From: Sedimentisphaerales bacterium
GTDB lineage: Bacteria > Planctomycetota > Phycisphaerae > Sedimentisphaerales > Anaerobacaceae
NCBI GenBank assembly: GCA_049510335.1
Contig: JBEKZA010000005.1
Span: 10,763-74,762 of the forward strand
Length of the DNA: 64,000 bases
Direction: 5' to 3'
Below, in pieces: positions 2,207 through 62,419 of this stretch (positions are counted from its first letter, which is position 1; each line of letters starts with the position of its first letter). Below the pieces are notes generated by a model. That model did no database searches. It was not told the DNA's origin and saw only the letters and a list, made by a program, of their open reading frames with translations. Position numbers and translations under genes: made by a program.

Positions 2207-4063
2207 ATGTATTCGGATTATATTCGTAATGTTGCGATAATCGCCCACGTTGACCACGGCAAGACCACGCTGGTTGACCGGATGCTGTATCAATCGGGGA
2301 TGTTTCGGGTCGAAGAGCTGGACAAGCTCGCCGGCGGCGAGTTCGGCCTCATTATGGATTCAAACCCCCTCGAACGTGAACGCGGCATCACAATCCTGAG
2401 TAAAAATTGCGCGATTACCTATAAGGACTCCAAAGGCCGCGAATACAAAATCAATATAATCGACACCCCGGGCCACGCCGATTTCGGGGGCGAGGTCGAG
2501 CGGGTCCTCAAAATGGCCGACGGCGTCCTTCTCCTCGTTGACGCCTTCGAAGGCCCTATGCCCCAGACAAGGTTCGTCCTCACCAAGGCCCTGGAGCTCA
2601 AGATAAAACCCATAGTCGTCATTAACAAGGTTGACCGCGAAAACAGCCGGCCCGACGATGTCGTCAACGAGGTCTTTGATTTGTTCGTGCAGCTCGGTGC
2701 CAGTGACGACTCCCTTGATTTTCCCATCATTTACGCCTCGGCAAGGGAGGGCTGGGCGACGACGAAACTTGAAAAGAAAACCACCAATCTTAAGGTCATC
2801 TTCGATACCATCATCAAAAAAATCCCTCCTCCAAAGGCCGTCCCAGATGCTCCGCTGCAAATGCTTGTTACCAATCTCGAATATTCTGACTACGTCGGGC
2901 GAATTGCGATAGGCAGGGTCTTCGCCGGCCGCGTAGCCGAGGGCCAGGCGGTAACCGTAATCAACAACGCAGGCGTGCATACCCAGCAAAAAATTATGCA
3001 AATCCACCAGTTCCAGGGTCTCAGCCGAAAACGCGTCTCTGATGTTGAAGCCGGCGATATATGCGCAATCTCAGGCCTCGACCCCATCGAAATCGGCGAT
3101 ACCATCGCCTGCGCCGATAATCCCTCGCCGCTGGCAATCATCTCCGTCGATGAGCCGACAATGACAATGACCTTCAGGGTCAACGACGGCCCATTCGCCG
3201 GAAGAGACGGCAAATACGTTACCAGCCGGCAAATCGGCGAACGACTCGAAAAAGAGCTCCAGGGCAACGTCGCCCTGCGAGTTGCGCCAGGCGAGACCAC
3301 CGAAGAATTCAACGTCTCGGGCCGGGGTCTTATGCACTTAGGTATCCTGCTGGAAAATATGCGCCGCGAGGGTTTTGAGATTTGCGTGGGCAAGCCCAAT
3401 GTCATCATCAAAACCATCGACGGCATACCTCACGAGCCGGTTGAGCTTCTCGCTATTGATTGCCCTATGGATTGCCAAAGTGCGGTAATGAGCTTGTTAG
3501 GCGACCGAAGGAGCGAAATGATTAAGTTGGACGCCAAAACCGGCGCATCCGGCTTTATTCATATAGAATTCTTCATCCCATCCCGCGGTCTTTTCGGCCT
3601 GAATGCCCGGATGATGAACGCCACACAGGGAAAGGCCGTTATGCATCACTCCTTCGAAAGATACGAGCCGATGAAAGGCGCCATTCCCCGGCGAAAAGCA
3701 GGCGTTATGATTGCCACTACCACAGGCACCGTAACCGCTTATGCCCTCGACGCCCTCTATGACCGCGGTTTCTTCTTCGTCGAGCCGGGCGAACAGGTCT
3801 ATGAAGGTCAAGTCGTTGGCGAGCACTGCAAGGAAGACGATATAACCGTTAACGCGGTAAAAGCCAAACAACTGACCAATATGCGCGCCGCCGGCAAAGA
3901 CGATGCCGCACGAGTCAAACCGCCCCGAAAGATGGCCCTTGAGGTCGCGATGGCATACATCCAGCAAGATGAGCTTGTTGAGATTTGCCCCAATTCCGTT
4001 AGAATCCGCAAACGCTTCCTCAAGGAATCCGACCGCCGACGCCAGGCCCGCAAATCCGAGTAA
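2207..4063 (+). CDS. typA: Translational GTPase TypA/BipA
   Basis: [22 protein letters not shown] (G1), [12 protein letters not shown] (G3), NKVDR (G4). The 618 aa length and the C-terminal BipA-specific region also fit. Confidence 0.95.
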
Positions 4064-24805: not shown

Positions 24806-25161
24806 TGGAGGCGGGGGGATTCGAACCCCCGTCCCGGAATGCATCAAGACGAGCATACTACACACTTAGTCGTATTTTTGTTTTATCGCCTCCACGACAG
24901 GCAAACGACGGCCAATCGCTTTGGCTATTCCGGGATTGGTCTTAACCCATCGGCCCGAAAGCTCCGACGAGAGCAGCCCGCTATCTTACGCCCGAATCAG
25001 GCCCGCAGGCGCGACCTGAAAGGACGGGTTGCCTAATTTAGGCAGCCATTTGCAACTGGTAGTTGCCAATTAAATTTAGTGCCGGAATGATTAGCCAGGC
25101 CAACCGGCGTCCTGGGTATGCAGCTCGACTCTCCGACATCCGGTCGAAGCCATTCGCCCCC
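24806..25161 (-). ncRNA. ssrA: tmRNA (SsrA)
   Basis: 5' GGGGGCGAAUGGCUUCGACCGGAUG pairs with 3' ...GGACGGGGGUUCGAAUCCCCCCGCCUCCA, giving an acceptor stem with a G3:U pair, a T-arm and discriminator A. CCA is not encoded. The internal tag frame GGC AAC UAC CAG UUG CAA AUG GCU GCC UAA reads (A)GNYQLQMAA*. Confidence 0.9.
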
Positions 25162-54764: not shown

Positions 54765-55010
54765 ATGACGCTGTTTTGGACGCTGATAATAACGGCCGCA
54801 ATCCTGGTGGGGCTGGGCTGGATTGCATACGGGATATACGATTACAGGGAAAGCAAGCTGGAAAAGCAAAGGCCCAAGGAAAGGTCCGAGCGCTACACGC
54901 AGGCGACGGACTCGGTTTCCGACTATGCGAAAAAACTGGCCGAATTCAAAAAGCCCACCTACAAGCGAGATGAATCCTCTCCCCCGGATACAAACCAGCC
55001 GCAGGGATAG
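54765..55010 (+). CDS. Small single-TM protein with a charged tail, function unknown
   Basis: N-terminal helix LFWTLIITAAILVGLGWIAYGIY followed by a Lys/Glu-rich tail. Sits behind the promoter above. Confidence 0.5.
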   Translation: MTLFWTLIITAAILVGLGWIAYGIYDYRESKLEKQRPKERSERYTQATDSVSDYAKKLAEFKKPTYKRDESSPPDTNQPQG

Positions 55011-55145
55011 TTGCCGATGGCAGGCGCGTTTCTAAACGGTGATGCTCAGGTAGCCGGGCGGAATGCATTTGTAGAAAATTTTTGGCTCGTAAATGCCCCA
55101 CCCCGAAGAGCTTATGAACACAGGCGTAAAATTTACATTTTTTAC

Positions 55146-55225
55146 TTGATGTTCCCGATAAATCTTATATAGTAGATTATCACTATATGGTTTAGAGGAG
55201 AATAGAACGATAATGAATTATCGTT
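55146..55225 (+). promoter_or_regulatory. Putative promoter with two inverted repeats (operator-like) upstream of the TPR / Cys-rich / unknown three-gene module
   Basis: TTGATG, a 16 nt spacer, then TATAGT (55146-55173). IR1 is ATATAGT-N8-ACTATAT (55167-55188) and overlaps the -10. IR2 is AACGATAAT-GA-ATTATCGTT (55206-55225). Confidence 0.4.
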
Positions 55226-55351
55226 AGATAGCTTAGAGAGAGAGGAAAACACATGCCCACATCCAACACCCTAAGACAGATCTTTGTTCGTAAAACCCAT
55301 TTTTTCTGCAATTCACAAATCAAACCTCGTTTCCCGGAAAGGACGGCAATT

Positions 55352-57001
55352 ATGTCGAGGCAGATATACTGCATTATTGTAATCCTTCTTGTGGTGAGCA
55401 TTGTTAAACCACTGCCGGCCAACGCTTCGCCACTCGATATTGGCTCAGAAAAATCTCAGATTGTTTCATTCATCGCAGCAGGCAATCTGGGCGAGGCGGA
55501 TTCAGCGGTTGCCGAAATTATGGAGATGCCCGCCAGCAGGGAAAAGGGTCATACACTTCAGCAGATAGCCGGAGCATATCAACAAGCCAAGCAGTATGAC
55601 AGGGCGATAACGCTTTGCGACTATGTGCTGAAGAACTGGCCTAATGAGGATTTTGCCGTCTGGGCGGGGATGTCGATGGCACTTTCGCAGATGGACAGCA
55701 AGGATTTCACGGCGGTCGAGAAGACGATTGAGCGTATAACTAACGATTGTGCCAACGATGCTAATCTGCCGTGGGTGCTTTCGATTATCGCGGACGGCTA
55801 CGCAGCCAATAAGATGGACGACAAGGCCCGGCATCTCCGCGAGGTCGCTATCGACAAGTCGCCGGAAAGTATATGGGGTGCTGAGGCGCAGATACTGTCT
55901 TTGATTAATCAGCGGGGTTATAAGGTCGCGCAGAAGCGGGTTAATTCGCTGATAACGGATTTTAACGGTAATCCGAATTTGTCAGAGATGGTGTTTCGAA
56001 TCGGTCAGGAATTCTGCTGGAAACACAGATATGCCGAGGCAAACGATGTTTTTGCCCGTTTCGATACCGACAAAGCGAAATTGTGGCGTCAGTGCGCTAT
56101 AACCTGCGATTTCGTCAGGCAGGGGCAGGATGACCAGGCGGCCAAAGCCCTCAAAAAAATGAACGCGGACTTCCTGAATAATCCGGGATTGGCGGAGGCG
56201 ATGTATCGGGTGGGTCAGGAACTTGAGTGGTGCAAAGGCGAAAAGGCCGCCGGTTCGCGCGAATATGTCGCGGCAACTGAAGCATATAAGGGGGTAATGC
56301 AGCAGTTTGGCTCGACAGCGACAGGCAAACAGGCCGACTGGGATTCTCGCCGGCTGGAAGCGCGTATCGCTATCCTTGACGCGATTGAAAACAACTCTCC
56401 GGGGGCTGATGCGGCGGTGGATAAGATGGCTTCCGAACTTGCCGGCAGACCTGAGCTTGCCGACGAGCTTTCCTGGATGGCGGCCTGGTGCAATGACCAT
56501 CAAAAATACGATATGGTCGATAAACTTGACAGGCGGATAATGACGGAATACCCCAACAGTGACGCAAGCGTTCAATCGCTGTGGCGTATAGTCACCGCTA
56601 TTGTCACAGCGAACGACGATGCAAATGACACCGTCAGCCAGATAAAAAAGCGGTTCGCGGACGGTCGGAAGCTCCTGCCGGCGTTAATTACAGCGGGGAA
56701 AATTTATCAGCAGAAGGCAGAAGGACTGCCGGAGGTAGACCAGAAACCATATTTAGAGAAGGCGATTCGGCTGTTCACCGAGACCGTACAAACCGCACCA
56801 AGCCCCACTGCGACGCCCGGGACATACCTGCAACTGGCGGATTGTTATCGAAAATTGCACAGGTTTTCGGAGGCGCTTGCCTGCTACGAAGAAATAAAGG
56901 GGAAATGGCCGGATAGCTCACTCGAAAAAGAATGCCTTATGGGTATCCAGACGTGCAACATAGAAATTCACAAGGACAAGGAGAATGGCTATGTTAAATA
57001 A
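55352..57001 (+). CDS. Secreted TPR-like helical-repeat protein
   Basis: Signal peptide MSRQIYCIIVILLVVSIVKPLPANA. Recurring modules of the type NSLITDFNGNPNLSEMVFRIGQEF / MNADFLNNPGLAEAMYRVGQELEW and a terminal canonical TPR (YLQLADCYRKLHRFSEALACYEEI). An alternative start lies at 55253. Confidence 0.7.
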   Translation: MSRQIYCIIVILLVVSIVKPLPANASPLDIGSEKSQIVSFIAAGNLGEADSAVAEIMEMPASREKGHTLQQIAGAYQQAKQYDRAITLCDYVLKNWPNEDFAVWAGMSMALSQMDSKDFTAVEKTIERITNDCANDANLPWVLSIIADGYAANKMDDKARHLREVAIDKSPESIWGAEAQILSLINQRGYKVAQKRVNSLITDFNGNPNLSEMVFRIGQEFCWKHRYAEANDVFARFDTDKAKLWRQCAITCDFVRQGQDDQAAKALKKMNADFLNNPGLAEAMYRVGQELEWCKGEKAAGSREYVAATEAYKGVMQQFGSTATGKQADWDSRRLEARIAILDAIENNSPGADAAVDKMASELAGRPELADELSWMAAWCNDHQKYDMVDKLDRRIMTEYPNSDASVQSLWRIVTAIVTANDDANDTVSQIKKRFADGRKLLPALITAGKIYQQKAEGLPEVDQKPYLEKAIRLFTETVQTAPSPTATPGTYLQLADCYRKLHRFSEALACYEEIKGKWPDSSLEKECLMGIQTCNIEIHKDKENGYVK

Positions 57002-57902
57002 GCCCACTACAAATGAGAAAATCAAGGTCCGTCAGTCCGTAAGGACTCCACGGGAGGACTCCCTAGGAGAACACCGGCTCATAAGAACGGGATTTCTGGC
57101 GCTATTTGTGTCCTTTTGTCTTCTTGCGGGTGTCTGCAGCCCCGTTTTTGCCAATGGTTGTGTGCCTACCTGCTCGGGCTATACGTACTGGGAACAGATT
57201 TATAGTTGCGACGTTACTCCATGGCCATATTGCATGTGTGAGCAGATGGTATTAGAAACGCTGAATTGGAAGACAACAGGAAACTGCTGTAGCGGGATAT
57301 GCCGGGTAAAATCTGTCACAACAGGAGTCGTTGGGCAGATATATGAATGCTACGGGGGGCTTCCAAACTGTAGTCCGGGCGTTTGCCCCACTTCATTGTA
57401 TGAGGAAGTTGAAGGCAACGTCCCCGCCGAGTTCGGCTGCACCTGCTGCGACCCCCCCTGCCACGCGGACTACTGCGAGGAGTGCGTGGATTGCGTCTGC
57501 AAAGTTTGCGGCGACGACCCGAAAAAGTGCTGCAAAAATGGGGAATGCAAACAATGTTGCTACACCTGGAATAAATTCGCGTGCGAAGTACATAATTATG
57601 GTTGCGGTTGCGATCCCATTGGCACTTCAACTTGCACTGATTCTGACCCAAAAGAGTGGACCATTGGAACTTTAAACGATTGTTCTTCGGAGTGTACTGG
57701 CGGTCCCCCCTGTAGTGATTACACTTACATAAATATTCCGTGCTATGCGACGCAGTCCTGTATCGAAGGATCATGGTCTTATGATAGTACTTGCATTGCC
57801 CCGCCTGAGGACTGCACTCCTACATATTTAGGAATTTGCCAGCATTGTCAAGGTGGTGGTCCAGCTACTGTCGTGAAAGGCCCTGATTGTCAGTGTAATT
57901 GA
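56985..57902 (+). CDS. Secreted/anchored hyper-cysteine-rich protein, function unknown
   Basis: AGGAGA RBS. Its start lies within the last 17 nt of the upstream gene. Hydrophobic segment FLALFVSFCLLAGVCSPVFA, then a mature region dense in CC, CxC and CxxC (for example CTCCDPPCHADYCEECVDCVCKVCGDDPKKCCKNGECKQCC). Confidence 0.7.
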   Translation: MAMLNKPTTNEKIKVRQSVRTPREDSLGEHRLIRTGFLALFVSFCLLAGVCSPVFANGCVPTCSGYTYWEQIYSCDVTPWPYCMCEQMVLETLNWKTTGNCCSGICRVKSVTTGVVGQIYECYGGLPNCSPGVCPTSLYEEVEGNVPAEFGCTCCDPPCHADYCEECVDCVCKVCGDDPKKCCKNGECKQCCYTWNKFACEVHNYGCGCDPIGTSTCTDSDPKEWTIGTLNDCSSECTGGPPCSDYTYINIPCYATQSCIEGSWSYDSTCIAPPEDCTPTYLGICQHCQGGGPATVVKGPDCQCN

Positions 57903-57960
57903 TTATATTTTGTTCTGACGTAACCAGAAAAATATTTTGATATGATAAAGAGGTTATAAG

Positions 57961-59127
57961 ATGAATATAAAATTTATGGATGTTCGTAGCCAAAACAAAA
58001 CAATATCGTTGTGGTTTATTACCTTGCTTGTTTTTTTTGCAATTCCACAGCAGGTTTATTCGGCAAATGAGCAGCAATGGATTCAAGTACCGGAGGCAAA
58101 TTATGCCGATGTTCTTGAACTGATTGTGTTGAGAGCGAAGGCAAATTATGATGAGATTTCTTCGTGGCAGGGCCGAATAAATATAATGGAGACAATCCAT
58201 CATTATGGAATGAATGCTGCAGAAATGGTTCGAGTAGATAAGAATGTTCTAAAAGGAGATACGCAACATATATGCAGTATAGACAAAACAGTTGCTGAAT
58301 TTGCTGTGGATATGCGCGAAGACAAACTATATTCCAGTGTCAAACCAGCTGTGCAGTTTAAAGCTGTAGATTTGGACCAGTATGTTCCGTTGGCTAAGGG
58401 GATAAAGATATCAAGTAGAATAAGGACAGTTCTGACACCAGATAGTTGGATGTCGTATGAACCTGACTTCAACTATGCCCCAAAGTTTCATCAAGGGCGA
58501 CCAAATAAGATGGTATTTATTAACGTACCTACGGAGGTAAAAGGCGGACAGAATGGAGAGATTCGCGACCCTCGTATATTTTTCAATTCCGGAGGAGAAA
58601 ACAAAAAACTATGGGATACCCTTTTACAAATAAAAAGTAATATCAACGAACGTATAAAGGAGCGTGTCGCGGGTTATCCTCATATAGAGATAAGTTCTTT
58701 GAATACGGATAAAAGCATTAGGTATCGTATTTTAACTACATGGAGGGGCGGCGAGAATTATGTGATGAAGTATATCCGTTCACTGCTTGAAGTTGACGAG
58801 GCAGTTGGTTTTAACACGACAAAGGTTGAGGTAAGTAGTCCGGATGGAGTTAAGTTAACTTCACAGCAGTACACTTACGAGCAAATCGGGGAAATGTATG
58901 TTCCCAAAACTGTCAAGAAAGAGCAACGCAATAATAAAGGCGATATTACAGACACATCTGAAATAACTATCGAAACTACCGGCATAAATAAACCTCTGCC
59001 GGAAGATACGTTTACCATCAAGAATCTTGGAGTCGAAGAAGATGCGATTGTCACCAACAACATAAAAAAAGCCGAGTTTAGATATAGCAAAGGTAATCTT
59101 GTCCCGATTGCAGATACGAATGAATAG
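57961..59127 (+). CDS. Secreted protein of unknown function, encoded by a markedly AT-rich gene
   Basis: AGAGG RBS. Signal peptide ISLWFITLLVFFAIPQQVYSA. Beta-rich with no recognisable catalytic motif. Any LolA/RseB-like fold resemblance is speculation. Confidence 0.65.
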   Translation: MNIKFMDVRSQNKTISLWFITLLVFFAIPQQVYSANEQQWIQVPEANYADVLELIVLRAKANYDEISSWQGRINIMETIHHYGMNAAEMVRVDKNVLKGDTQHICSIDKTVAEFAVDMREDKLYSSVKPAVQFKAVDLDQYVPLAKGIKISSRIRTVLTPDSWMSYEPDFNYAPKFHQGRPNKMVFINVPTEVKGGQNGEIRDPRIFFNSGGENKKLWDTLLQIKSNINERIKERVAGYPHIEISSLNTDKSIRYRILTTWRGGENYVMKYIRSLLEVDEAVGFNTTKVEVSSPDGVKLTSQQYTYEQIGEMYVPKTVKKEQRNNKGDITDTSEITIETTGINKPLPEDTFTIKNLGVEEDAIVTNNIKKAEFRYSKGNLVPIADTNE

Positions 59128-59281
59128 CTTGTTCAAGCGGGTGTACGGCGTATTTGAAACGGCGGTTCGGAAAATGAGAAAGAAAATCGCTTTATTAACG
59201 CAGACGCCAGCCGTGCGAATCCAACATTGGTTATATTCTCGGCGAAACAAACGCCGAGGACCATTTTATAATTTGGTCCGA

Positions 59282-59815
59282 TTAATTTTTCGCCGCAGGA
59301 TTGTCGTGCAGCCCGGGCCCGGGTTTCATATATTCGAACAGCTCGAAGATTTCGCCTGATGGTCCCCTGAAAAACGCGATTTTAACGCCGCCGAACAGAT
59401 TCGGGTCTTCCGTGACGGGCATATTGAAGCTGATGCCTTTGGCTTTGAGCTGCTCAAAAGTTTTGTTAATGTCCGCCACTTCAAGCGCGACATGGTTGAT
59501 AACCCCGGTAGGCCACGGTGCGATTTTGGCAACGTCCTTTGGTTCCAGCAGCTCGATTATGCACGAGCCCTTCCTGACAAGAACGAACTTGAAGCCGGAC
59601 GCAAGCTCTGTTTGGTGAATCAGCCCGAACCCGAGGGTGTCGGTGTAAAATTTGAGCGACTTCTGAATGTCTTTTGTATAAATGCAGATATGCGCAAGGC
59701 CCGTGATGCCGACGCTGTTGGCGTCAGCGGCAAGCGCGGGGCGCTGGGCAGAAACGATTGTCGCCGCGGCTAAAAGCAATTTAGCCAGATTTTTCCTGAT
59801 TTGTCCTGTAGACAT
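59282..59815 (-). CDS. Secreted VOC-family (glyoxalase-fold) protein
   Basis: Signal peptide ending ALAADA. LAHICIYTKDIQKSLKFYTDTLGF and NHVALEVADI. Confidence 0.75.
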   Translation of the reverse strand: MSTGQIRKNLAKLLLAAATIVSAQRPALAADANSVGITGLAHICIYTKDIQKSLKFYTDTLGFGLIHQTELASGFKFVLVRKGSCIIELLEPKDVAKIAPWPTGVINHVALEVADINKTFEQLKAKGISFNMPVTEDPNLFGGVKIAFFRGPSGEIFELFEYMKPGPGLHDNPAAKN

Positions 59816-60532: not shown

Positions 60533-60739
60533 CACGAACCTGTCATAATGGCTATTGCGCTGCCAAAACTGGTTTGCACAGGAAGGGCAGTCAAACGCGG
60601 ATTCGACTTAACTTGTTATATTAAAAGGAATTAGGGAAATGGCTGGCATTATTGACATCGCTGGTATATGATTTGCGGGATTCGTGAGGGTTTCTACCGA
60701 AATCAGGCAAGGTTTTGATATTGATAAGGAGTGCAGGCA

Positions 60740-62419
60740 ATGGCGGTGAAACAATTGGCGTTCGATGTTGAGGCCCGACGGGCATTATTGAGGGGCGTGG
60801 AGAAATTAGCGGCGGCGGTGAAGGCAACACTTGGGCCGAGAGGACGAAACGCAATCATCGACAAAAGCTGGGGCGGACCAACCGTTACCAAAGACGGCGT
60901 GACAGTCGCCGAGGAAATCGACCTGCTCGACAAAAACGAAAATATGGGCGCAAAATTGGTGAAGGAAGCGGCCAGCAAGACCTCGAAAATAGCGGGCGAT
61001 GGAACGACTACCGCGACGGTGCTGACCGAGGCGATGTATAAGGAGGCGTTTCGCAACATCGCGGCGGGAGCCGACGTGATGTCGCTTAATCGCGGGATGC
61101 AGGAAGCGTCAAAGGCGGTGGTGGAGCGTCTCAAGACGCTGGTCAAGCCAGTGGACATCAGCCAGAGAACGGACATCGTCAATGTCGCTTCGATATCCGC
61201 CAACAACGACACTGAAATCGGCAACAAGATGGCTGACGCGTTTCAGCGGGTCGGCAAAGATGGCGTGATAACGATTGAAGACGGCAAGGGGCTGGCAACA
61301 ACGGTGGATTTTGTGGAGGGTATGCAGTTCGACAGGGGGTATTTGTCGCCTCATTTCGTGACCAATCCCGATAGTATGACCTGCGAGCTGGAAAAGCCCC
61401 TGATACTGGTTTATGAGGATAAAATCAGCAGCGTGGCGAAGTTGGTGCCTTTGCTGGAAAAAGCTGCCAAATCCAAACGGGCTCTATTGATTATCGCCGA
61501 AGACGTTGAGAGCGAGGCGCTGGCGACACTGGTAGTCAACAAACTCAAGGGGATTATACATTGCGTCGCTGTGAAAGCGCCTGGATACGGCGACAGACGC
61601 AAGGCGATGCTGGAGGATATCGCGATACTGACCGGTGCCGAGCCGATATTCAAGGATTTGGGTATCGAGCTTGAGAACATAAGCGTCAAGCAACTGGGCC
61701 AGGCCAAAAAGGTGACGATAGACGGCGACAACACGATTATCGTCGAGGGCGCCGGAGACGAGAGCGCCGTTAAGGGCCGGATTAAGCAGATACAGGATGA
61801 GATAGAGAGAACCACCAGCGATTACGACAAGGAAAAACTGCAGGAACGTTTAGCCAAATTGACGGGAGGCGTAGCGCAGATAAACGTCGGCGGCGTCAGC
61901 GAGGCGGAAATGAAGGAGCGCAAGGCGCGGATAGAAGACGCGCTTCACGCGACGCGGGCGGCGATAGAAGAAGGCATAGTGCCGGGCGGCGGCGTGGCGT
62001 TGATTCGCTGCATCGATGCCGTGAAACAATTAAAATTAACCGGCGACGAAAAAACCGGCGCCGACATCGTCGCCAAATCGCTGTCGATGCCGTGCTACTG
62101 GATAGCGGCCAACGCCGGAGCCACAGCCAACCTGGTTGTCAGCAAGGTATCGCAAGGCAAGGGCGCTTTTGGCTATAACGCTGATACCGATACCTACGAG
62201 GACCTGATGAAGGCGGGAGTGATTGACCCCCTGAAGGTGACAAGAATTGCCCTGCAGAACGCCGTCAGCATTGCGGGACTATTACTTACAACGGATTGCG
62301 TCATCACCGAAAAGCCGCAGGATAAAAAAGAAGGACATCAGCACCCCGGCATGGGCGGCATGGGAGGAATGGGGGGCGGTATGGGCGGCATGGGTGGTAT
62401 GGACGATTACGGAATGTAG
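60740..62419 (+). CDS. groEL: Chaperonin GroEL (copy 1, with a GGM-repeat tail)
   Basis: [59 protein letters not shown], and the tail [18 protein letters not shown]. Confidence 0.95.

Follow-up and report, generated by a model that had tools for sequence, protein, structure and literature searches.

A conserved, undescribed gene cassette pairing a predicted exported hyper-cysteine-rich protein with a LolA-superfamily-like protein in a Sedimentisphaerales bacterium

The window analyzed here, a 64,000-nt stretch of contig JBEKZA010000005.1 from a Sedimentisphaerales bacterium (Planctomycetota, class Phycisphaerae), contains three consecutive open reading frames (ORFs) on the plus strand that form a real, conserved and undescribed module: g1 (55352–57001, or from an alternative start at 55253), encoding a tetratricopeptide repeat (TPR) protein; g2 (56991–57902, or from 56985), encoding a hyper-cysteine-rich protein; and g3 (57961–59127), encoding a protein whose modeled fold resembles the LolA superfamily. 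An earlier, sequence-only reading of this DNA had proposed a secreted three-gene module made of a TPR-like protein, a hyper-Cys-rich protein and an AT-rich unknown, and the layout that it described was borne out. The three genes lie on the same strand; all three proteins start, as described, with an N-terminal hydrophobic segment followed by a small-residue cleavage-like site (read from the sequence), and they are probably exported via Sec; no enzymatic family was found in g1–g3 with Pfam or NCBIfam, in line with the lack of enzymatic motifs reported before; and the flanks are indeed unrelated, with a LarA-like gene and 6-phosphogluconate dehydrogenase (gnd) upstream, and genes for a glyoxalase/VOC protein and an HhH-GPD protein, then GroEL, on the minus strand downstream. 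PADLOC gave no match for g1–g3 and PHROGs nothing relevant, and homologs of the three genes were absent from the viral contigs searched.

The junctions within the module are tight. The g1 stop codon (TAA, 56999–57001) falls within g2, and the overlap is 17 nt, as originally stated, if g2 starts at ATG 56985, or 11 nt if it starts at ATG 56991. The latter start is likelier because a Shine-Dalgarno sequence, AAGGAG (56978–56983, plus strand), lies 7 nt upstream of it within the 3' end of g1, forming a putative translational-coupling junction, and because the public 303-aa call (P0001) begins at 56991. The gap between g2 and g3 is exactly 58 nt, also as read before; this A/T-rich spacer (57903–57960, plus strand) carries an extended Shine-Dalgarno sequence (AAAGAGGT). 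In an alignment of 13 loci with close relatives of g3 (type I, see below), spacers of 54–77 nt shared the consensus ..AATCTGA..TAACCA.AAAAATATTTT.A.AT.ATAAAGAGGTGATAAGATG, with a mean pairwise identity of 0.62 versus 0.335 after shuffling (z = 15), or 0.54 when the Shine-Dalgarno region was removed (z = 10); third codon positions of g3 are conserved to a similar degree (0.53). The aligned type-I spacers gave no consensus RNA structure, and the conservation is compatible with a possible internal promoter or translation-initiation element. We infer that g1, g2 and g3 are a single transcription unit because of the 11–17 nt overlap, the conserved 58-nt spacer without a terminator-like hairpin, and the conserved gene order in more than 10 genomes.

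A non-coding leader of 341 nt precedes g1 (55011–55351, plus strand) and sits in a window of GC 0.415 versus ~0.52 around it. The AT-rich leader that the sequence-only reading had placed here thus stands, and the promoter-like element that it named is present (TTGATG-16-TATAGT, 55146–55173), but such matches are no commoner than in shuffled sequences (6 found versus 7.0 expected), so that the hexamers are weak evidence for a promoter. Rfam returned no family match in the region. Pattern matching also placed a terminator-like hairpin with a T-rich tail at 59236–59270 (plus strand), 109 nt past the g3 stop and between the convergent g3 and VOC genes; terminator-like matches were not enriched over shuffles.

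The predicted exported product of g1 has 549 aa in the NCBI call (MGA2171872.1, 'tetratricopeptide repeat protein') and 582 aa in the JGI call, which uses the start at 55253. Its TPR-like character was confirmed by four Pfam models above their cut-offs (TPR_19, 35.6 bits, cut-off 25; TPR_14, 33.9 bits, cut-off 23.5; TPR_6, 32.1 bits, cut-off 26.3; TPR_2, 29.6 bits, cut-off 27), and the protein has ~6 long repeats of its own type. The N-terminus, MSRQIYCIIVILLVVSIVKPLPANA followed by SP, ends in an AxA-type site (ANA before SP) and is without a lipobox Cys. Among NCBIfam models, g1 is most similar to YbgF/CpoB and BamD, with which it shares a signal peptide and TPR_6/TPR_19 repeats, and both identities were rejected: TIGR02795 (YbgF/CpoB) reached 56 bits against a cut-off of 90.1 (E 5e-15), over the C-terminal repeat only and with no adjacent tol/pal genes, and TIGR03302 (BamD/YfiO) reached 36.6 bits against 81.4 (E 3e-9), with no lipobox Cys. 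Unlike these proteins, g1 stands outside any Tol-Pal or Bam context, and its length and repeat type are its own.

The second gene encodes a predicted exported protein of 303 aa (305 aa from ATG 56985) for which the label hyper-Cys-rich is apt, with 42 Cys in 305 residues (13.7%). Across the g2 family Cys content ranges from 13.7 to 18.8%, with many CxxC and CC motifs, and homologs consist of three parts: a signal peptide, Cys-rich repeats in variable number, and a conserved C-terminal domain of ~120 aa. The N-terminal repeat region contains CxxCxxxxCxxCG[GD]D and the recurring unit CE[ST]CVDG.CKVCGGDP.K.CC.G.C, and the C-terminal domain (consensus CE.HN..CGCDP.G..C....KEWT.G...C..EC....CY....C...C..C...C.C.) has fixed Cys spacing, conserved Trp and Tyr residues, and the ending C.C[NP]. 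The N-terminus of g2 is signal-like (...GFLALFVSFCLLAGVCSPVFA followed by NG), and AxA-like cleavage contexts predominate in the family; only some homologs have a Cys immediately behind an AxA- or G-type site, and a lipoprotein nature as a family property was rejected on this inconsistency. No match to g2 was found in Pfam, NCBIfam, PADLOC or PHROGs; 20 g2-family proteins gave no Pfam match at E ≤ 1, and a profile of these 20 sequences gave none at E ≤ 1 against PDB sequences. Two further identities were tried and discarded, namely a YTV wall protein (no YTV domain, and no Pfam match among the 20 family members) and a metallothionein-like protein (no family match, a C-terminal domain with conserved Trp/Tyr, and no adjacent metal genes). 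The mature proteins, with cleavage sites guessed by eye, have an even Cys count in four of nine cases and an odd count in five. The aromatic content, together with Cys residues at fixed spacing, favors a disulfide-rich over a metal-binding protein, and g2 is probably a modular, secreted, disulfide-bonded protein.

This gene family is easily overlooked. In the source metagenome-assembled genome (MAG), g2 lacks an NCBI annotation, as the accession of g3 (MGA2171873.1) follows directly on that of g1 (MGA2171872.1), and g2-like ORFs are likewise uncalled in at least three other assemblies, two NCBI MAGs and one JGI contig (L001 7279–7923, L004 7545–7940 and L032 8279–8938; the prefix L denotes loci from other genomes or contigs). 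Word-indexed protein searches returned 3–7 g2 relatives and the search with a g2 alignment returned 7, numbers that are small because gene callers skip the Cys-rich gene. Two g2 copies appear damaged beside an intact g3: that of L004 (7545–7940) is truncated, begins with GTG and lacks a signal peptide, and that of L031 (8003–8945) is split over two frames by a frameshift or a sequencing error.

The third gene encodes a predicted exported protein of 388 aa, identical to 'hypothetical protein ABSG82_02510' (MGA2171873.1), with a signal-like N-terminus (...ISLWFITLLVFFAIPQQVYS followed by A). An AlphaFold2 (AF2) model from a 35-sequence alignment was confident, with a predicted local distance difference test (pLDDT) of 85.8 and a predicted template-modeling score (pTM) of 0.79; in it, a helix at the N-terminus leads into an antiparallel sheet that is long and curved. 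The best Foldseek matches were both members of the LolA superfamily (3buu_B, E 4e-8; 3bk5, E 1.5e-7; probability 1.0), followed by LprG (3mha, E 5e-4, probability 0.99); acetoacetate-decarboxylase-like enzymes were also listed (E ~4e-4, probability 0.2–0.3, template-modeling (TM) score ~0.1). Weak matches to PF17131 (LolA_like) recurred over the C-terminal half in 12 of 35 g3 homologs (best E 0.004), and P0046 reached E 8.7e-4 (19.4 bits). Neither g3 nor its homologs matched PF03548 (LolA) or MucB_RseB in Pfam, and the g3 profile gave chance-level matches only against PDB sequences (E > 0.6). Since the model is confident and its top matches belong to the LolA superfamily, but TM-scores to these structures are low (values given below), g3 is read as an enlarged, divergent LolA-superfamily fold outside any named family. 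The 'AT-rich unknown' of the sequence-only reading therefore remains AT-rich, but now has a modeled fold that resembles the LolA superfamily. Of the family and fold comparisons that had been proposed there for the three proteins, those for g1 (by profile) and g3 (by model and Foldseek) gave an answer, whereas g2 yielded a low-confidence model and no match. Membership of the canonical Lol pathway was rejected for g3 (no PF03548 match, no ABC transporter in the operon, and g2 homologs without a consistent lipobox), as was identity with the anti-sigma partner RseB/MucB (no Pfam match, and no sigma or anti-sigma gene at the window locus).

The g3 family is large and unnamed. An exhaustive profile search, with clusters defined at 50% identity, retrieved 882 cluster representatives at E ≤ 1e-3, a number that fell to 389 at ≤ 1e-10 and to 80 at ≤ 1e-30. 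Its signature motifs are NYxxIxxWQG, DPR..F, GFN and N.P[LI]P.DTFT..NLG (in the family form N.P[LI]P..TFT..NLG); Asn, Asp and Trp residues are near-invariant across members that are 17–58% identical, and five polar residues (N62, D117, D203, N343 and D366) are invariant in 72 diverse members. Type-I g3 proteins are 56–62% identical across genomes, and GroEL and LpxB of the same genomes are 58–62% identical, which indicates from the sequence comparison that type-I g3 is under purifying selection at a housekeeping-like rate. By the same measure g3 is the most constrained of the three components (g2 C-terminal domains are ~40–50% identical across genomes, and g1 homologs in the cassettes of other genomes 23–29%).

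The gene neighborhoods of g3 homologs, collected by looking up proteins and by scanning GTDB representative genomes and metagenomes, link the two families. A Cys-rich ORF lay directly upstream on the same strand in 23 of 30 assessable g3-family genes, with gaps of 23–87 nt, and in all 14 close (type I) g3 genes, with gaps of 54–77 nt. In the reverse search, starting from g2, g3 was directly downstream at every locus with downstream sequence; a narrower g2 alignment gave 5 loci in the metagenome scan. The complete order of TPR, Cys-rich and g3-like genes was found in the window and in L001, L002, L029, L012, L016, L011, L031 and L032; the triad of the sequence-only reading thus recurs in eight loci besides the window. 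In most cases the TPR stop overlaps or abuts the start of the Cys-rich gene, by 4 nt in L001 (whose TPR gene also has a LamG domain), by 1 nt in L012, L011 and L029, and with a 3-nt gap in L016. The invariant core is the g2–g3 pair, and the TPR gene is frequent but dispensable. Flanking genes vary among genomes, with loose synteny such as groES/groEL or lpxB near some loci. The proposal of an undescribed secreted multi-gene module has therefore held: homologs of the genes co-occur elsewhere, none of the proteins matches a characterized family of unrelated function, and the literature searched contained no description of the cassette.

The pair also occurs in multiple copies. Tandem arrays of a Cys-rich gene with a gene for a secreted protein of ~340–400 aa were found in L006, L007, L009/L024, L013, L030 and L031, with 3–5 cassettes of differing types in L009 1–9386 (= L024), L030 1–7829 and L031 300–10158; in L031, fragments of the TPR 3' end are duplicated ahead of each Cys-rich gene. 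At least four cassette types could be distinguished; where different types share a genome, every g2 type stays with its own g3 type. Across loci, similarity of the g2 C-terminal domain tracked that of the adjacent g3 (Mantel r = 0.89, reached by 0 of 5000 permutations), which shows at the sequence level that the g2–g3 pair duplicates and diverges as a unit. This type-for-type co-variation fits a specific partnership, but it is no proof of one because adjacent genes are co-inherited anyway. Among the other array genes, three in L009, and L004 6434–7462 with L009 6106–7119, were compared with g3; hhalign probabilities of 2.5% and 1.4% do not support a g3-like identity, although a C-terminal 'N.P.IP.E.F...P.G..V.D' motif in these partner proteins resembles g3. 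L031 and L011 have in common a cassette of a long Cys-rich protein (512–563 aa) with a HEAT-repeat protein, and in L011 an IS200-like Y1 transposase (3213–3875; PF01797, E 5e-13) lies between the Cys-rich/HEAT genes and the g3-like gene.

Differing cassettes can also occupy one site. L001 (8001–13363) and L010 (493–6095), whose GroEL proteins are 95% identical, carry a cassette at the same position upstream of Memo-groES-groEL, of type I in L001 and type IV in L010, with a normalized g3 similarity of ~0.22; the comparison suggests that cassettes turn over, or are differentially lost, at this fixed site. A mobile-island origin found no support at the window locus, where neither flanking repeats nor a tRNA was found and g3 identity equals that of housekeeping orthologs; given this equality, recent horizontal transfer is not needed to account for g3 conservation. 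The base composition of g3 is distinctive. Its GC content is 0.39 and its GC at third codon positions (GC3) 0.37, the lowest of the 38 ORFs of the window (median GC3 0.64; minimum among the other 37, 0.45), and GC3 falls along the operon from 0.60 in g1 to 0.50 in g2 and 0.37 in g3. The g3-family genes have a GC3 of 0.26–0.43 in nearly every locus, well under their neighbors (L001, L002, L004, L006, L010, L013, L020, L022 and others), and the exception is a sigma-factor fusion in Singulisphaera (0.77). Low GC3 in the g3 family alongside housekeeping-level protein conservation is an evolutionary puzzle.

This fusion (Singulisphaera sp. Ch08, L018 7014–10004) is a 996-aa protein that combines, in order, regions 2 and 4 of an extracytoplasmic function (ECF) sigma factor, a predicted transmembrane helix, a Pro-rich linker, a g3-family domain (residues 332–683; hidden Markov model E = 1.3e-26) and a PD40/TolB-like propeller. 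Because it follows a transmembrane helix and precedes a propeller, the g3 domain is suggested to be an extracytoplasmic binding or sensing module. Distant g3-like genes (424–441 aa) were also observed in termite-gut Planctomycetaceae MAGs (L015 95–6770 and L017 1–3665), where they are followed by a gene for a small secreted protein of ~143 aa (8–9 Cys) and one for a large membrane protein with PMT_2 (ArnT/PMT-type glycosyltransferase) and BPL_N/GATase-like domains.

Taken together, these observations are best described, with a probability of about 0.4, by an exported envelope module in which the LolA-fold g3 binds or escorts its cognate disulfide-rich g2 and the TPR protein g1 acts as a scaffold. 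In this model, g1 and g2 would be made in fixed proportion through translational coupling, and after export the TPR protein would hold or scaffold g2. The g3 protein, a putative periplasmic LolA-superfamily half-barrel, would recognize g2 of its own type by the conserved C-terminal domain and would then carry or position it within the envelope or on the cell surface, where g2 would have a structural or adhesive function; in another version, g3 might hold a hydrophobic ligand that is associated with g2 or needed for this step. In this model, co-transcription, export, physical binding between the proteins, disulfide bonding and the role in envelope assembly are all inferred.

Several observations weigh against this model. 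On the side of g3, superposition on LolA-like structures gave TM-scores of 0.31 (query) and 0.48 (target) at a root-mean-square deviation of ~10 Å, low values that mean the LolA-like assignment covers only part of the protein, and g3 itself scores under the PF17131 cut-off (13.3 bits versus 30, E 0.068). On the side of g2, the AF2 model from 7 sequences was of low confidence (pLDDT 34.5, pTM 0.24); the inconsistent lipobox in the family means that classical Lol-type carriage by an acyl chain is not supported; and the hosts are anaerobic, so that oxidative folding of ~40 cysteines is not assured. The association of the genes has its exceptions as well: some array partners (~340–370 aa, secreted) are not detectably g3-like (hhalign probability 1–3%), L004 has no TPR gene and L006 has a gene for a beta-helix protein in its place, and distant g3 relatives have no Cys-rich neighbors in L014, L018 and L020–22, as is true of those in termite-gut MAGs and Singulisphaera.

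Four other readings of the same evidence were considered. A signaling pair, in which g3 would be a periplasmic sensor or receptor like RseB/MucB and g2 its ligand or modulator, with output through an anti-sigma or ECF sigma factor encoded elsewhere, is unlikely in our estimation, although it draws on several of the above results: RseB also has a LolA-like domain, the g3-family domain lies between a transmembrane helix and a propeller in the Singulisphaera ECF sigma fusion, and the polar residues invariant across 72 g3 members suggest a specific (predicted) binding site. However, no sigma, anti-sigma or other regulator was found beside the cassette in the window or in the Phycisphaerae loci examined, arrays of up to 4–5 cassettes would be unusual for sensors, and g3 has no match to MucB_RseB in Pfam.

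Quite unlikely, too, is a conflict cassette, in which g2 would be a disulfide-rich toxin or bacteriocin that is secreted and acts through its C-terminal domain, and g3 the cognate periplasmic immunity or export-accessory protein. Its appeal lies in architecture, namely a protein with a variable N-terminus and a type-specific C-terminus followed by a type-matched gene, diversified cassettes in tandem arrays, differing types at a syntenic site in the close relatives L001 and L010, and a low GC3 as in many accessory islands. Toxin, immunity and defense domains were nevertheless absent from the Pfam, NCBIfam and PADLOC results, and secretion-system genes from the vicinity. In addition, g3 is large (388 aa) and evolves at a housekeeping-like pace (56–62% identity), unlike immunity proteins, and its place as the most constrained component speaks against immunity as a fast-evolving role; type-I cassettes are kept widely and are not patchy; and every array member has its own signal peptide and is not an orphan C-terminal module.

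We attach a lower probability again, in the range of the very unlikely, to g3 as an enzyme or ligand-processing protein that acts on g2 or on a polymer or lipid of the envelope, with g2 as substrate or co-factor-binding partner. Decarboxylase- and VioE-like enzymes also have beta-cone or half-barrel folds, and such a role could be read into the position of g3 as the most conserved of the three genes, its near-invariant Asn, Asp and Trp over 17–58% identity, the acetoacetate-decarboxylase-like proteins listed by Foldseek (E ~4e-4), and the PMT_2-type membrane glycosyltransferases that adjoin the distant g3-like genes of L015 and L017. The decarboxylase-like matches are low, however (probability and TM-score given above), no catalytic family was found by sequence, and an extracytoplasmic module in a sigma-factor fusion fits binding better than catalysis. 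Least probable of all is a thiol-rich, metal- or redox-active g2, periplasmic or exported, that would serve an anaerobe to sequester or buffer metals, with g3 and g1 as accessory binders: the Cys content of 13.7–18.8% with many CxxC and CC motifs, the odd Cys count in 5 of 9 predicted mature proteins (sites guessed by eye), and an anaerobic host order, in which periplasmic disulfide formation is less assured, stand in its favor, but g2 has few His and many aromatic residues, the fixed Cys spacing of its C-terminal domain is what folded disulfide-rich domains typically show, searches matched neither a metallothionein nor a metal-binding family, and no metal transporter or regulator lay near the loci examined.

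Compared with described systems, the escort model finds its closest parallels among LolA-fold carriers. LolA/LolB proteins, especially those of PF17131 (3BUU, NE2245; 3BK5), provide the best matches to the g3 model and the recurring weak PF17131 similarity, and g3 is likewise predicted to be exported and soluble. It differs from them in being ~170 aa longer, in the low TM-scores and PF17131 bit score given above, in its own motifs (NYxxIxxWQG, DPR and GFN), in a locus without lolCDE, MMPL or ABC partner, and in a Cys-rich partner that is not consistently a lipoprotein. RseB/MucB with RseA, of sigma-E signaling, offers another arrangement of a LolA-like periplasmic protein with an exported or membrane partner, as proposed for g3, and the Singulisphaera ECF sigma fusion that contains a g3-family domain is a hint at function only; unlike RseB/MucB, g3 has no MucB_RseB match, and its cassettes stand in arrays at loci without a sigma or anti-sigma gene. 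LprG and LppX are mycobacterial glycolipid carriers and lipoproteins, LprG being an envelope carrier of hydrophobic cargo, and LprG (3mha) is among the significant fold matches of g3, but g3 has neither a lipobox Cys nor sequence similarity to them. Polymorphic toxin-immunity arrays resemble the module in their type-matched adjacent pairs, tandem diversified cassettes and low GC, and differ from it in that the module has no toxin or immunity domains, that g3 is large and slow-evolving, and that each cassette encodes a complete exported protein. By analogy, the module would work most like LolA-fold carrier–cargo or partner systems (Lol, LprG/LppX and RseB-RseA), yet it falls outside each of them because it scores below family cut-offs and has no LolCDE genes, no lipobox cargo and no sigma or anti-sigma neighbors.

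Several neighboring genes were noted in the window. An 81-aa ORF on the same strand (54765–55010), between gnd and the leader, encodes a protein with a single transmembrane segment near its N-terminus and a tail rich in Lys and Glu; no family matched it, and other genomes do not keep it beside the module. The glyoxalase/VOC protein downstream (59282–59815, minus strand) may also be exported, since it has a signal-like N-terminal segment (…LLLAAATIVSAQRPALAADA). The GroEL gene (60731–62419) has a GGM-repeat tail and is probably a paralogous chaperonin copy, because no groES lies directly upstream and its product is 58% identical to the groES-linked GroEL of L001 and L010. The sole tRNA-like gene of the window is a tmRNA gene (24806–25161, minus strand) with the tag peptide GNYQLQMAA.

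For g2, the nearest described proteins are the YTV proteins of Planctomycetales and chlamydial OmcA/OmcB, which are exported, very Cys-rich envelope proteins from the same superphylum; an envelope location is predicted for g2 as well, and the 20 g2 homologs differ from them in giving no Pfam match at E ≤ 1. YTV and Omc proteins are not known to pair with LolA-like genes. YTV proteins have been reported only from Planctomycetales, and as absent from early-branching planctomycetes (PMC8567305). The source organism belongs to the latter, and this absence leaves room, speculatively, for a different Cys-rich envelope protein in Phycisphaerae. A further extension of the escort model, possible though doubtful, is that cassettes of a Cys-rich and a LolA-fold gene, headed by a TPR gene, are a planctomycete-specific machinery that builds a cross-linked Cys-rich layer or surface structure in Phycisphaerae without YTV proteins, with each LolA-fold protein as the dedicated periplasmic escort of one type of wall or surface protein. 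If true, this would be a use of the LolA fold for protein cargo other than lipoproteins, hidden because gene callers skip the Cys-rich genes.

The above analyses tie a large unnamed family of LolA-like fold (~880 clusters) to an orphan hyper-Cys-rich family, and they expose an annotation blind spot, in that uncalled Cys-rich genes leave this family under-represented in protein databases. If the escort model is true, the uses of the LolA fold, in carrying lipids and lipoproteins, would come to include dedicated partners of proteins, and if one of the other readings is true, a new signaling or conflict system would be defined. Little is known, above all in Phycisphaerae, about the proteins that make up the unusual envelopes of planctomycetes, and the module is a widely conserved candidate for such a component.

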